Below are positions 21,431-63,055 of a stretch of 64,000 nt of DNA, in pieces. This stretch comes from an uncultured Candidatus Saccharibacteria bacterium. Lineage in GTDB: Bacteria; Patescibacteriota; Dojkabacteria; J137. The first letter of the stretch is position 1, and the number at the start of each line of letters is the position of its first letter. A program made the translations under genes and the position numbers. The notes under the pieces were generated by a model. That model saw only the letters and a program-made list of their open reading frames with translations. It did no database searches and had not been told where the DNA came from. The stretch lies in NCBI GenBank assembly GCA_964561155.1, contig CAZLOI010000001.1, positions 302,759 through 366,758 on the forward strand, given 5' to 3'.

Positions 21431-21505
<75 letters not shown>

Positions 21506-25762: not shown

Positions 25763-25904
25763 AAGAGTTAGATAACGTTAATTCTTGGATTATATTCGGA
25801 GGGTTTTCATTCTACAAGAGTGTGAATTATAAAAAGACTATAAGATTAAAACTCTAAAACTTTCGATTTAGCTCATGTTAAACTTACATAGTTAAAAAAA
25901 CAAA

Positions 25905-28442
25905 GTGTCCAAGAACAAACTACTAATAATCGATTCCTTTGCTTTAATATTCAGAGCCTATTACGCTTTTCCACCAACATTAACCAATGCACAAGGGGAA
26001 CCTGTTAATGCAGTCTTTGGTTTCTCAACACTTTTGCTTGATGTAATCCTTAAATTCAATCCAACACATATAGTTGCTGTAATGGATTCAGCAGGACCAA
26101 CCGTTAGGCAGACGGAGCATTCGTTCTATAAATCTAACCGAGATTCAGCAGATGACCTAATGACTGTCCAGATACCGCGCATCGTTGGAGTGTTAGATTC
26201 ACTAGGTATCCAATTGCTAAGAGCAGATGGGATAGAGGCGGATGACATAATTGGGACTGTAACAAAAAATATGTCCAAAAGCTGGGCGGATACAATCGTA
26301 GTAACAGGAGACCAAGATCTCTTTCAATTGATTGATGAAGACACTCAGATATATCTAGCTGCTAGAAAATTTTCGGACTCAAAATTATTCCAAAGAGAAG
26401 ATGTTAAGGACAAGCTTGGTGTGTATCCAGAGCAAGTGGCCGATTATAAAGCTATAGCAGGAGACTCATCGGACAATATACCAGGTGTGCGAGGAATAGG
26501 TCCGAAAGGAGCTGTTGACCTAATAACTAAGTTTGGTAGTCTTGAAAATATATATACAAAAATTGATGAAGTTGATAAGAAATATAAAGAAAAAATGATA
26601 GAAAATGTTGAGATCGCACAAACCTCAAAACATCTAGCTACTATTAATACAGATATTCCAATCTCCTACGATATAAACAATGCTAAATTCGAGAATCCAA
26701 ACCTTTCTCAGACAAGAGAGATATTCACAGAACTTGAATTCAAGAGCTTGTTAACAAAACTTGATAGACTCGCAAAGATGTATATGCCATCTGCTAGTAT
26801 TGGTTTGTTCTCGCAAGAGAATCTAATGCCAGAAGTGGCGATAGAATATTCAAAGAAAATTGAGGAGTTGAAGGATGAGCAAGAGCTTTACCTTTACAAG
26901 AACGGTAACAGTGATTATCTAATCTCTGGTAGCACAGACACAATCTATACTGGAGAACTATCAAAACTTCTAGAGATTGTTAAAGGAAAGAAATTGATCT
27001 CATTCAATCTTAAGGATCACAAGGAACTGTTAGCAGTAGCTAGCTCGTATATGGATTTAATGATATCTGGAGTTGTTGTAGGTGGAGGCAGAGTTACTCC
27101 TACTATAAACAGCGTCCTAAGATTCTTTGGTGCTACACCAAGTGAAGAGCCAGGTATTCTTCTACTTCAGATGAAGATTGCGTACAAGAATATGCTTGAA
27201 GAATACAAGGAGAATAAGGTAATAGCCTTAGAGAATGAGATCCTTCCTGTTGTTATCAGAATGGAAGAGAATGGTATTTCTTTAGATAAAAAACAGTTAG
27301 AGAAAGACTTGGCTACCCTTCAGAAGGAAAGAGAATCTGTTCAAGCAAAGATATTTGAACTAGCAGGACACGAAATCAATGTTAATTCACCAAAACAAAT
27401 AGGAGAGCTTCTTTTCGTTGAAAGGCAGTTGTCTGGAGCAAGAAAGACAAAGACTGGCGCATACAGTACAGATGAAAGAACTCTACGGGATCTTTTGGAT
27501 CAAGATCCAATTATTTCCTTAATTCTAGAATTCAGAGAGCTCGACAAGATTATCGGAACATATCTTTCACCATTACCTGATTATATATATCCGCTAGATG
27601 GAAGAGTTCATGGAACTTTTGATCAAATAGGAGCTGTTAGTGGTAGGTTTGCATCGCGTAATCCAAATATTCAAAATATTCCAAAGGGAGAATTCTACGG
27701 AGTTAATATTAGGAACTCGTTTAAGGCAGAGGAAGGGAGCGTTCTAATATCATTCGACTATTCTCAACAGGAGCTTAGAATACTTGCAGCACTTGCTGAG
27801 GAAGATAATATGCTCGAATATTACAATACTGGAAGAGACGTTCATATTCTCACAGCTTCTCAGTTATTTGAGGTAGATGAATCAGCTGTAACTAAACAGC
27901 AAAGAGATGTAGGCAAAACTGTCAATTTCAGTATCATATATGGTATATCAACATTCGGACTTTCGGACAGACTAAAGATTCCTAGAGAAACTGCTGATAC
28001 TTTTATTAAAAAATTCTACGAAGCATATCCAAAGATTAGAATTTTCATGGACCAAGTTTTGGAAGATGCAAAATCTTCGGGATTTACTGAAACTATTTTG
28101 GGTCGAAGAAGGTATAACGAGATGATTAAGTCCAACAACAGGAACTTAAGGGCTGCTGCAGAGAGAGAGCTATTCAACTTTATAATCCAGGGGAGTGCGG
28201 CAGATGTTATGAAGATGGTTTTAACAAAAATTGATGATGTTTGTGATGTAGAAAACAAGCTAGTAGCACAGATACATGATGAGTATCTTTTTGAGTGTAA
28301 AAATACTTCGGACAATATTGAAGTCTTTGTCCGAAAGATATATCATATTATGAAAGATGTTTACGATATGGGCGTCGAATTCAAGGTGGAAGCCAGTATC
28401 GGAGAACAATGGGGTAGCTTAATTAAATATGATATTAAATAA
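25905..28442 (+). CDS. polA: DNA polymerase I (5'-3' exonuclease plus polymerase domains; apparently no 3'-5' proofreading domain); GTG start
   Basis: The N-terminal FEN domain has LLIIDSFALIFRAYYAF and DNIPGVRGIGPKGA. The polymerase motifs are DYSQQELRILA, RDVGKTVNFSIIYG and FNFIIQGSAADVMK. Confidence 0.9.
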   Translation: MSKNKLLIIDSFALIFRAYYAFPPTLTNAQGEPVNAVFGFSTLLLDVILKFNPTHIVAVMDSAGPTVRQTEHSFYKSNRDSADDLMTVQIPRIVGVLDSLGIQLLRADGIEADDIIGTVTKNMSKSWADTIVVTGDQDLFQLIDEDTQIYLAARKFSDSKLFQREDVKDKLGVYPEQVADYKAIAGDSSDNIPGVRGIGPKGAVDLITKFGSLENIYTKIDEVDKKYKEKMIENVEIAQTSKHLATINTDIPISYDINNAKFENPNLSQTREIFTELEFKSLLTKLDRLAKMYMPSASIGLFSQENLMPEVAIEYSKKIEELKDEQELYLYKNGNSDYLISGSTDTIYTGELSKLLEIVKGKKLISFNLKDHKELLAVASSYMDLMISGVVVGGGRVTPTINSVLRFFGATPSEEPGILLLQMKIAYKNMLEEYKENKVIALENEILPVVIRMEENGISLDKKQLEKDLATLQKERESVQAKIFELAGHEINVNSPKQIGELLFVERQLSGARKTKTGAYSTDERTLRDLLDQDPIISLILEFRELDKIIGTYLSPLPDYIYPLDGRVHGTFDQIGAVSGRFASRNPNIQNIPKGEFYGVNIRNSFKAEEGSVLISFDYSQQELRILAALAEEDNMLEYYNTGRDVHILTASQLFEVDESAVTKQQRDVGKTVNFSIIYGISTFGLSDRLKIPRETADTFIKKFYEAYPKIRIFMDQVLEDAKSSGFTETILGRRRYNEMIKSNNRNLRAAAERELFNFIIQGSAADVMKMVLTKIDDVCDVENKLVAQIHDEYLFECKNTSDNIEVFVRKIYHIMKDVYDMGVEFKVEASIGEQWGSLIKYDIK

Positions 28443-31160: not shown

Positions 31161-32684
<1,524 letters not shown>

Positions 32685-32841
32685 CAAAAGGAGTTTGATT
32701 ATAAGTAATTTATAATCTGACCCAAGTTTTAGATTTGCTCAAAGTACTTGACGTTTCCTTATCACTTTTTAAGAGTTTAAAAGAACCTTAAATCAAAATA
32801 TCACTAATGGTGAACTACCCATGGTAGCTAGCCTGCATCAC

Positions 32842-37151: not shown

Positions 37152-38375
37152 ATGAGTAAAATCAAAAAACACTCAGAAGAAGAGATGAACGCTCTTCTAG
37201 AAGGGGTAGCAATCCCTAAAACTTTCAAGAAAGGAGATATCATCGAGGGAACAGTTGTTTCTATGAATGACTTTGGAATGATCGTCAATGTTGGCGGTAG
37301 AACTGAAGGAATCGTTGGTGGTAAGCACTTAAAGCTTGGAGGAAAAAAGGTTGTTAAAAAACCTGGAGATATAATTCTATCTTATGTTCTAAAAACAGAA
37401 TCTGAAGACGGACAAATTCAATTGTCTGTAAGCAAGACTGGACCTGAACTAAAATGGCACGAGCTTGAACTCGCTAAGAAGATGGATACTTCTATCAAAG
37501 TGAAAGTCATAGAGGCTAACACTGGAGGAGTAATCGTTGAAATTAACGAAGGATTAAGAGGATTCGTACCTAGTTCTCAGTTAAGGAACAATAGAATCTA
37601 TACTACAGAGACATACTCTGGAAAGGTTGATGCTGTTAAAGCACTTCAAACTAAACTAGCCGAGATGATCGGAGAGGAACTTGAAGTAGTTGTAATGGAG
37701 ATCAACAAAGACAAGAACAAGGTTATTCTTTCTGAAAAGAGAGCATTCAACGACGGCGTAGACGTTAAAGAAATGGAGGCAACTCTATTGAGTCTAAAGG
37801 TTGGAGATGCACTAGAAGGAGAGGTAACTGGAATTGCTCCATTCGGTCTATTTGTTAACGCAAAGGGATTGGAAGGATTGGTTCACTTATCTGAAATTTC
37901 TTGGGATAAAGTATCTAACCCTGCAGATTTCTACAAGGTTGGAGAAAAGGTTCAAGTACAGGTGTTAGGATTACAGGATAACGGTAAGAGAGTAGCATAC
38001 TCGATTAAACGACTTGTACCAGACCCATGGAAGAACATCGTAAAGAAATACAAGGTTAACCAAATTGTTGACGGAGTAGTAAAGAGCGTTGCTGACTACG
38101 GGGTATTCGTAAAGATTGAAGAAGGTCTAAATGGCTTAATTCACATCAGCGAATTATCTAACAAGTTAGTAAAGCACCCTTCACAGATAGTTGCAGCTGG
38201 AGACGCAATCAAAGTCATGATTATTTCTATCTCTAACGATGATAGACATCTAGGCTTGAGCTTAAAGAGAGTAACTGGTCCTGCGGAAGCAGAAACAGAA
38301 GCTCCTCAAGCAGCTAATTCAGAAGCTTCTAGAGAAATGGAAGGTTTAGATAAGTTATTAAACGATACAAAGTAA
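37152..38375 (+). CDS. rpsA: 30S ribosomal protein S1, short 4-domain form
   Basis: It contains four S1/OB repeats (GDIIEGTVVSMNDFGMIVNVGG; VKVIEANTGGVIVEINEGLRGFVPSSQL; GDALEGEVTGIAPFGLFVNAKGLEGLVHLSEIS; VDGVVKSVADYGVFVKIEEGLNGLIHISELS). Confidence 0.85.
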   Translation: MSKIKKHSEEEMNALLEGVAIPKTFKKGDIIEGTVVSMNDFGMIVNVGGRTEGIVGGKHLKLGGKKVVKKPGDIILSYVLKTESEDGQIQLSVSKTGPELKWHELELAKKMDTSIKVKVIEANTGGVIVEINEGLRGFVPSSQLRNNRIYTTETYSGKVDAVKALQTKLAEMIGEELEVVVMEINKDKNKVILSEKRAFNDGVDVKEMEATLLSLKVGDALEGEVTGIAPFGLFVNAKGLEGLVHLSEISWDKVSNPADFYKVGEKVQVQVLGLQDNGKRVAYSIKRLVPDPWKNIVKKYKVNQIVDGVVKSVADYGVFVKIEEGLNGLIHISELSNKLVKHPSQIVAAGDAIKVMIISISNDDRHLGLSLKRVTGPAEAETEAPQAANSEASREMEGLDKLLNDTK

Positions 38376-62975: not shown

Positions 62976-63055
62976 ATTATCTGTGAGGCATCTTCAGATT
63001 TTGAGGTTTTCCTGTTATACTTGCTAAGCTATTTTATTTAAAACCAAGGAGAAAT

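Follow-up and report, generated by a model that had tools for sequence, protein, structure and literature searches.

The 16S rRNA gene and its 3' tail

The subject here is a 64,000-nt stretch of contig CAZLOI010000001.1 (assembly GCA_964561155.1; hereafter the window, with positions in it prefixed w), which carries a 16S rRNA gene with an altered anti-Shine-Dalgarno (anti-SD) core and one strong Shine-Dalgarno (SD) sequence, in front of rpsU, the gene for ribosomal protein bS21 (Table 1). Its host belongs to the Patescibacteria (candidate phyla radiation, CPR), in a Dojkabacteria/WS6-related lineage, and about 74 kb of genome was covered in all. The rRNA operon has the order 16S, tRNA-Ile(GAU), tRNA-Ala(UGC), 23S (w33164-36204) and 5S (w36342-36459), according to Rfam and, for the tRNAs, ARAGORN; it is the only rRNA operon visible within the window.

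Table 1. Features of the window that bear on the 16S tail and on translation initiation
Feature	Position	Strand	Basis or remark
16S rRNA gene, full length	31161-32684	+	Rfam RF00177, 1410.9 bits, model 1-1533
Helix 45 region	32647-32672	+	E. coli comparison; folds as 8-bp hairpin with GGAA loop
16S 3' tail, GGAUUAACUCCUUU	32671-32684	+	U1533 = w32675, A1535 = w32677; core ACUCC (w32677-32681), CUCCUUU kept
First 13 nt of 16S-23S spacer, AAGGAGUUUGAUU	32688-32700	+	Complement of tail G1530-U1541; 12-bp precursor hairpin
rpsU, bS21, 67 aa	63056-63259	+	Pfam PF01165, 30.6 bits against a cutoff of 27; very basic C-terminus
SD AAGGAG, 4 nt before rpsU ATG	63046-63051	+	Complement of 16S C1536-U1541; sole strong SD in the window
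Putative rpsU -10, TATACT	63016-63021	+	Kept in both clade species; presumed function
Start-anchored AGUUAAA, -15 to -9 of polA	25890-25896	+	Kept in four genomes while -8 to -1 varies
rpsA, bS1, four S1 domains	37152-38375	+	Pfam PF00575, 178 bits, 4 stretches
Initiator tRNA-Met, 5' CGCGGGG	21431-21505	+	ARAGORN and sequence; anticodon loop CUCAUAA, A37

The 16S gene ends in GTCGTAACAAGGTAGCCGTAGGGGAATCTGCGGCTGGATTAACTCCTTT (the longer stretch being ...GGGGAATCTGCGGCTGGATTAACTCCTTT), and this end was compared base by base with positions 1494-1542 of E. coli. The original prediction, made from the sequence of the window, was that the core reads ACUCC in place of CCUCC and that a C further upstream has become T. 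Both changes were borne out, as C1535A and C1533U, respectively, and A1542U is a further difference. Within helix 45 there is a compensatory pair, A1508G (w32650) with U1527C (w32669), which replaces A-U by G-C, while C1520U (w32662) gives a G1515.U1520 closing pair.

Comparison with the tails of related CPR lineages, which had been suggested along with the prediction, showed that the variant recurs in relatives of the same clade (loci of relatives are given as L-numbers). The gene directly before the 16S gene encodes a VanW-domain protein, and a search for its homologs led to the syntenic loci L120 (GCA_963169855), L124 (JGI 3300069043) and L126 (GCA_964650085), whose VanW proteins are 59-74% identical to that of the window; an exact-protein look-up with VanW gave no match. 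The tail together with CAAAAGGAGT is identical in all three, and the full shared string is GGATTAACTCCTTTCAAAAGGAGT. The UAACUCC tail was also found in L042 (metagenome-assembled genome (MAG) KLAP211, the closest relative in the tail scan, with 96% 16S identity), L082 and L054/L129, and the ACUCC variant occurs in three GTDB species representatives.

The tail scan of GTDB species representatives, in which the helix-45 sequence of the lineage and TCCTT were fixed and the tail positions left free, returned 119 loci: 95 with CACCUCCUU, 20 with UACCUCCUU, 3 with UAACUCCUU and 1 with UAUCUCCUU. Position 1535 is C, A or U among these relatives; those at 84-87% 16S identity bear the label Dojkabacteria (WS6), most of them with a UACCUCC tail. 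CUCCUU was present in 119/119 of these loci, which were selected with TCCTT already in the pattern, and independently in 6/6 tails that were anchored by PolA or VanW.

Start regions without Shine-Dalgarno sequences

For the start regions, 59 long non-overlapping open reading frames (ORFs) were built and 57 were scored over positions -20 to -1, with the sequence upstream of internal in-frame ATGs and shuffles as controls. GGAG was found in 1/57 start regions and GAGG in 0/57, compared with 8.7% and 4.3% upstream of internal ATGs, and G makes up 9% of positions -20 to -1 against 18.6% window-wide. The mean duplex energy with the real tail, GAUUAACUCCUUU, was -2.17 kcal/mol at the starts and -3.52 kcal/mol in the internal-ATG controls, and the fraction below -4.4 kcal/mol was 0.11 and 0.27, respectively. 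The pairing is therefore weaker at starts than in controls, with no enrichment of AGGAG-like motifs, which is the outcome that the original prediction had expected from such a check. Its description of genes without SD motifs holds for nearly all of them, and the tight gene spacing it mentioned was seen, with neighbouring genes 1-13 nt apart or overlapping (-1, -4 and -8 nt).

The window genes show neither the CCUCC core nor the G-rich SD peak at -12 to -6 of canonical SD-led initiation. They share with SD-scarce bacteria without CCUCC an altered core, a variant common to relatives and no excess of tail complements. Judged from these sequences, translation start without an SD is the rule in the window's organism; the stronger claim that initiation is SD-independent across the whole genome stands as a rule only, as rpsU keeps a strong SD.

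The substitution C1535A could be read as the cause of this loss, but relatives with an intact CCUCC (UACCUCC, CACCUCC) are equally SD-poor. In L128 (tail UACCUCC), an SD-like motif was seen in 0/14 genes, and Dojkabacteria-like loci with UACC or CACC are SD-poor as well; there is no GGAG peak in the neighbourhoods of the CACC class, the tail type of which was assigned from the rpsU SD extension and not observed. SD loss therefore predates C1535A and is independent of it. The 8-kb blocks around the tails of relatives hold too few genes for motif statistics per tail.

The strong Shine-Dalgarno sequence of rpsU

The rpsU start region, ccAAGGAGaaatATG, pairs with ACUCCUUU at -7.9 kcal/mol and ranks first among the 57, the second (-6.0 kcal/mol) being the 3' arm of a hairpin. 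Its product gave weak but consistent matches to solved bS21 chains. By exact-sequence look-up, the same 67-aa bS21 was found in two clade species, the leaders of which differ, while the SD is kept 4 nt from the ATG, as AAGGAG in one species and AAAGGAG in the other. The putative -10 predicts an rpsU leader of about 30 nt, which would be unusually long for this genome. No SD was found at the genes beside rpsU in the clade (tsf, frr, M50, dnaX, recR, rpsF, ssb and rpsR), and in L192, which has about 91% nucleotide identity over the shared 4 kb and runs past the end of the window, the rpsU SD is the strongest of 23 genes.

The same gene was then scored in 51 metagenomic loci from a bS21-subfamily profile search (bS21 identity 41-83%), by duplex energy against the invariant CUCCUUU, with cut-offs of dG <= -6 kcal/mol for ORF calls and <= -7 kcal/mol for orthologs. 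The order rpsB-tsf-frr-M50-rpsU-dnaX-recR-rpsF-ssb-rpsR is found in 49/51 loci. At the first cut-off, rpsU qualified in 36/51 loci compared with 7/210 other ORFs (Fisher P = 3e-25), and at the second in 34/51 compared with 2/198 orthologous neighbours. By gene, a strong SD was present at rpsB in 1/13 loci and at M50 in 1/32, and was absent from tsf (0/23), frr (0/25), dnaX (0/45), recR (0/27), rpsF (0/10), ssb (0/8) and rpsR (0/6).

Many of the rpsU SDs of relatives are longer, with 8-11 contiguous nt, and can be sorted into discrete classes. The AAGGAGGTGAT-type, at 22 loci, is the complement of GAUCACCUCCUU, and the AAGGAGGTAAT-type, at 6 loci, is the complement of GAUUACCUCCUU; GGAGA(T) and GGAGT occur at a few loci. 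The extensions GGAGGTGAT and GGAGGTAAT match the C1533 and U1533 tails, respectively, with tail and leader coming from different genomes outside the window clade, as no rpsU was found in L001-L130 and no 16S tail in L141-L191. A search for NusG homologs gave 204 candidates, none of which could be assigned to a genome whose tail is known. The match between classes and tail variants suggests covariation, in which case GGAGGUGAU would be expected with GAUCACC and GGAGGUAAU with GAUUACC, and existing MAGs are enough to test this within genomes.

Two further observations concern these classes. The GGAGA(T) SD of L145, L150 and the window clade is fully complementary to UAUCUCC, the tail of L100 (Dojkabacteria KatS3mg085), and not to UAACUCC, so position 1535 may have passed through U before A. 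The rpsU leaders of L166, L167, L168, L174 and L183 have AAAGGGGTG in place of AAGGAGGTG, which could point to another 16S tail variant, CACCCCUUU, in that sublineage.

Pairing of the tail with the spacer

The original prediction also had AAGGAGTT in the spacer pairing with the 16S tail in the precursor. The pairing is real and longer than was stated, with 12 bp between G1530-U1541 and w32688-32700, and w32650-32705 folds at -22.8 kcal/mol (RNAfold; z = -4.63, with 0/200 shuffles as stable). The tail/spacer hairpin is generic, as the core CUCCUU/AAGGAG pairing was present in 24/24 relatives examined and CTCCTTTCTAAGGAG was found after the 16S gene also in loci of other phyla, among them WWE3 and Planctomycetota. 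In the UACC relatives, C1535 forms a C.U mismatch within a longer tail/spacer helix, whereas A1535 forms an A-U pair in the window clade, and a processing-related reason for C1535A is therefore plausible. In Flavobacterium johnsoniae, ablation of the anti-SD impairs 16S maturation (PMC13000453).

Start context and leader length

The start regions have a context of their own. TTAA begins exactly at -13 in 13/57 genes, where other positions average 1.0 with a maximum of 4 (Poisson P = 6e-11), GTTA at -14 in 7/57 and AGTT at -15 in 5/57. A is enriched at -11 (37/57) and -10 (35/57) and is also favoured at -5, and T stands at -1 in 41/57 genes against a background of 0.35 (P = 1e-8). Operon-internal and first genes are alike in this, with TTAA at -13 in 6/25 and 7/32 and T at -1 in 18/25 and 23/32, respectively, and the start codon is ATG in 52/57. 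For U(-1), A37 of the initiator tRNA may be a stacking or pairing partner. For gene calling in the clade, SD-based start models are wrong, and the context of UUAA (-13), an A-rich stretch and U(-1), with short or absent leaders, should be used.

Two other sources of the motif were rejected. Seven tRNA promoters were examined and have the canonical TGnTATAAT, 7-10 nt before the mature 5' end and always ending in T; since TTAA is not present at any of them, it is not a general transcription-start feature. Upstream stop codons do not account for TAA at -13, as only three gaps of 10-13 nt exist.

The tRNA genes at w44401-44476 (-), w53706-53778 (+) and w19958-20031 (-) have TGATATAAT as extended -10, 7-10 nt before the mature 5' end, and transcription would begin at the mature end or a few nt from it, which would make these close to 'leaderless' tRNAs. 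Upstream of polA (GTG start at 25905), TGTTAAACT and AGTTAAA lie 6 nt apart (w25876-25896) and both are kept in four genomes; the polA promoter could be either of the two elements, and polA may be leaderless.

Hexamers of the -10 type are overrepresented between -36 and -11 (1-3 per position, where 0.28 would be expected), and the predicted leaders are therefore 0-25 nt long. In many genes a better TATAAT is found 22-35 nt before the start, from which leaders of 15-25 nt would follow, and others have leaderless geometry, as in TGTGCTAGAAT-N6-ATG (w36569), TGCTAAAAT-N6-ATG (w2453) and TATAAT-N7-ATG (w42867). Among the window genes, TATAAT hexamers with at least 5/6 matches lie at -12 or -13 in 4/57 and TAnnnT at -12 in 9/57. 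The distant Dojkabacteria L127-L130 have a perfect TATAAT or TACAAT followed by N6-ATG before polA, ftsH and even genes with gaps of 2-7 nt, and strong hexamers peak at -12 in distant relatives (7/48 genes against 0.24 expected).

These cases raise the possibility that most genes are leaderless, even inside operons, with T(-12)A(-11)...T(-1)A(+1) being a -10 element followed by a Y(-1)R(+1) start site, so that the SD would be irrelevant. Besides the three clear cases, the relatives with N6 spacing and the preference for ATG, T-12/A-11 is found in 22/57 genes compared with 8.4 expected and is accompanied by the frequent T(-1). However, T is present at -7 in only 9 of those 22, which is about background, whereas the tRNA promoters all end in T; strong hexamers in the window are spread without a sharp peak, and many genes have the better TATAAT further upstream. 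As an account of the whole, we regard this as unlikely, and a purely leaderless model was rejected, as it fits only a subset of genes. Our reading is that there would be a mixture of leaderless genes and genes with short AU-rich leaders, and leaderless starts are a contribution to the explanation given below and not an alternative to it.

Why the tail may be kept

The explanation that we favour is that the 16S rRNA of the window is functional, with a tail, GGAUUAACUCCUUU, that is fixed in the lineage, and that the clade would have left SD-led initiation before the tail mutated. Essentially all mRNAs would start without SD:anti-SD pairing, from AU-rich, G-poor leaders of 0-25 nt or, for a subset of genes, probably without a leader, and operon-internal genes abut or overlap their neighbours. 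The starts have the conserved context of UUAA at -13 to -10, the A-rich stretch and U at -1, and established knowledge of bS1 suggests that this protein, together with low secondary structure, presumably helps to recruit such SD-less, AU-rich leaders.

CUCCUUU could then be kept for two reasons. Firstly, it is complementary to the rpsU SD and would pair with it; ribosomes without bS21 would most likely prefer rpsU, giving an autoregulatory circuit by analogy with the Bacteroidia. Secondly, it forms the spacer hairpin, probably for maturation of the 3' end. Because position 1535 lies just outside the AAGGAG:CUCCUU helix of the window clade, it would be free to vary.

As a whole, we consider this explanation probable, and its descriptive parts very likely to be right. 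Functional SD pairing at rpsU is likely, and bS21-gated autoregulation of rpsU is put forward tentatively. The retention of an SD by rpsU alone across a syntenic radiation suggests a reason for keeping the 16S tail once SDs have disappeared from the other genes, and it carries the idea of bS21 autoregulation beyond the Bacteroidia, to a phylum in which bS21 and bS6 are without the sequestration hallmarks.

In the Bacteroidia, the anti-SD is sequestered by bS21, bS18 and bS6, and rpsU, which has retained an extended SD, is favoured by ribosomes without bS21 (Jha 2021 PMC7797042, McNutt 2023 PMC9976891, Naeem 2026 PMC13000453, Arpin 2026 PMC13000457). The window clade is similar in that its genome is essentially SD-free with the 16S tail kept, in that rpsU stands out from the other genes by a strong SD that matches the organism's own tail, and in that the tail is also implicated in pre-rRNA processing. 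The extended SDs of the relatives, in classes that match tail variants, resemble ASD2/SD2 of the Flavobacteriales, where the exceptions to CCUCC are predominantly found (Naeem 2026, PMC13000453). The rpsU pattern thus resembles the Bacteroidia system in its sequence logic, and its membership in the same mechanism is not established.

There are also differences, beginning with the phylum. In the window clade rpsR lacks an SD, the anti-SD core carries a mutation at 1535, and the bases favoured upstream are A (-11, -10 and -5) and U (-1), compared with A at -3, -6, -12 and -13 in the Bacteroidia. The Bacteroidia pocket involves Phe50, Asn56, Gln58 and Lys/Arg37 of bS18 (which has 81 aa in the clade), a C-terminal helical extension of bS6 (Trp100, Arg103 and Lys107) and the signature Tyr54 of bS21, which stacks on A1534. 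The bS21 subfamily of the window has a conserved aromatic residue (W/F/Y) at position 51, the equivalence of which to Tyr54 is not established, and the bS21 of F. johnsoniae was not found among the solved-structure matches of the window bS21.

Several points weigh against the explanation that we favour. The C-terminal part of the clade bS21, QAKHQKKKVWEKMKRRSSAAKRKKLK, is strongly basic (pI 11.8), whereas the Bacteroidia type is less so, and the clade bS6 has 96 aa, ends in ...LRIKEDQL and lacks the C-terminal extension. Because of these two features, the anti-SD pocket of the Bacteroidia is probably not reproduced, and the ribosomes may simply make no use of SD pairing rather than being 'blind' to it. 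The SD of the window clade is only 6-7 bp with a 4-nt spacer, compared with 9-13 bp in Bacteroidia rpsU, where the length is thought to be needed to displace bS21 (PMC13000453). In the window clade, GGAG is followed by an A that cannot pair with A1535, so there is no compensatory change for C1535A. A strong rpsU SD is missing in 15/51 relatives, including 8 of the 15 closest, and the circuit would therefore be dispensable in some lineages. Finally, other genes with an SD may lie outside the approximately 74 kb of genome covered.

It could also be that Dojkabacteria-like CPR have independently arrived at a 'specialised ribosome' circuit like that of the Bacteroidia, built from other protein determinants, in which the 16S tail would play no part for ordinary mRNAs and would be kept, as CUCCUUU with a lineage-specific linker at 1531-1535, mainly for a bS21-gated rpsU SD, and the variants C1533U and C1535A/U would co-evolve with the rpsU leader. 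This is a possibility that we hold with some doubt. If true, an rpsU SD as the last one standing would be a general end-state of bacterial SD loss and not a peculiarity of the Bacteroidia.

Alternative explanations of the altered tail

The tail could instead be decaying. With SD:anti-SD pairing dispensable, it would drift, and C1535A would be a neutral first step of the kind seen in insect endosymbionts and haemotropic mycoplasmas. The scarcity of SDs, the three bases found at 1535 and the loss of the rpsU SD in some close relatives would all be expected from this, and anti-SD loss is known from reduced genomes and about half of the Parcubacteria (PMC3457768, PMC9297842). However, CUCCUU is invariant in every recovered tail, whereas endosymbionts show decay at several sites, and the tail is identical across species with proteins only 59-74% identical. 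A perfect helix with AAGGAG or AAAGGAG can also still be formed by the tail, the conserved hairpin of the precursor leaves none of the tail unpaired, and the strong and specific conservation of the rpsU SD (34/51 against 2/198) argues against drift. We therefore think pure decay improbable.

Another explanation is that the SD has been re-tuned. The substitutions create 5'-UUAA-3' at 1532-1535, with which UUAA or GUUAA (the complement of 1532-1536 in the altered tail) at -14 to -10 of the mRNA could form an AU-rich SD:anti-SD helix. The sharp position of TTAA, GTTA and AGTT, their presence in operon-internal and first genes alike, their absence from tRNA promoters and the conservation of the element upstream of polA in four genomes agree with this, as does the frequency of TTAA, which is higher with an observed or proxy-assigned U1533 (17-26%) than in the proxy-assigned C1533 class (9%). 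Other results do not agree with it: shuffled sequences pair with GGAUUAAC as well as the start regions do (z = 0.1), the start regions avoid GGAG, which would pair most strongly with this tail, and the register expected for 1535 would place the motif about 5 nt closer to the start codon. The distribution among relatives is equally unfavourable. TTAA at -13/-14 is found in 26% of window genes, 23% in close relatives, 17% in the UACC class, the tails of which contain no UUAA, and 9% in the CACC class (tail type by the rpsU-SD proxy), and no covarying TGAT or GTGA motif was found in the last. The start motif becomes rarer with increasing phylogenetic distance rather than changing along with the tail, so re-tuning was rejected as the main explanation and is very unlikely.

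That the tail is a sequencing or assembly error (the outcome that the original prediction named as able to refute it) or belongs to a decaying 16S copy has a negligible probability, since for it there is only the prior probability, with one rRNA operon visible in the window, and it is ruled out by the identical tail in four independent assemblies and by the clade-wide variant, which includes three GTDB species representatives, with the full-length, high-scoring Rfam match and the compensatory pair in helix 45 also against it.

Comparison with other SD-poor and leaderless-rich bacteria

An altered anti-SD in SD-poor CPR is already known in kind. SD-poor bacteria with non-CCUCC tails are an established class that includes several CPR phyla (Lim 2012 PMC3457768; class iv, PMC10783764), and about half of the Parcubacteria lack CCTCCT (Tsurumaki 2022, PMC9297842). 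The window's organism is like these reduced-genome cases as a small-genome CPR bacterium with a non-CCUCC core, a variant common to relatives and no SD enrichment. Unlike the multi-site decay of endosymbionts, only one core position has changed while CUCCUUU is strictly kept. Anti-SD loss in the Parcubacteria overlapped with loss of uL1 (PMC9297842), whereas uL1 is present here (w47049-47702 (-), PF00687, 155 bits). Dojkabacteria are not among the lineages named for an altered anti-SD in the accessible parts of PMC3457768 and PMC9297842.

The change of CCUCC to ACUCC has been noted in Erythrobacter litoralis (PMC10783764), with the identical C-to-A at the 5' C of the core, but that species is SD-abundant and the window's organism SD-poor. 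Leaderless-rich bacteria include Mycobacterium, Deinococcus and the GeneMarkS-2 group C genomes (PMC3898074, PMC4633059, PMC6028130); similar to these, the window has a subset of genes with a -10 hexamer 6-7 nt before the ATG and a strong preference for ATG. The difference is that most window genes seem to have short leaders, and that leadered genes in those bacteria use SDs. In the literature searched, the coverage of which was incomplete, no report of an rpsU-only SD in CPR was found, and the pattern, so far described only in the Bacteroidia, appears to be new for CPR.

Other observations

The rpsA leader, CTTAGGACACACTTAAATAT (w37132-37151), is nearly identical in KLAP211 (L120 19032-19051), where the sequence beyond it on the upstream side has diverged; the leader may have a role in regulating the bS1 gene. 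A stem-loop of 7 bp (w61057-61086) precedes the gene for the M50 protease (w61089-62249) and ends 2 nt before the ATG. Its arms, CCCTTAC/GTAGGGG in the window, are CCCCTAC/GTAGGGG in L133 and CCTCTAC/GTAGAGG in L131, and with these compensatory changes it looks like a conserved structure that would occlude the start region. The ORF at w5345-5611 (+), which encodes 88 aa with a T4SS_pilin domain (PF18895), has a start preceded by AGTTAAAA, overlapping the stop codon of the upstream gene.

Within the rRNA genes, the 515F primer site (w31651-31669) reads GTGCCAGAAGCATCGGTAA in place of GTGCCAGCAGCCGCGGTAA, and universal 16S primers would probably miss this lineage. The 23S gene is 3041 nt long compared with the 2925-nt Rfam model, with insertions of about 65 nt and 25 nt at approximately w33450-33570, near model positions 290-312. 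In bacteria, AUA is normally read by a lysidine-modified CAU tRNA; ARAGORN assigned the tRNA-Ile gene at w19958-20031 (-) the anticodon UAU, which is unusual for bacteria.

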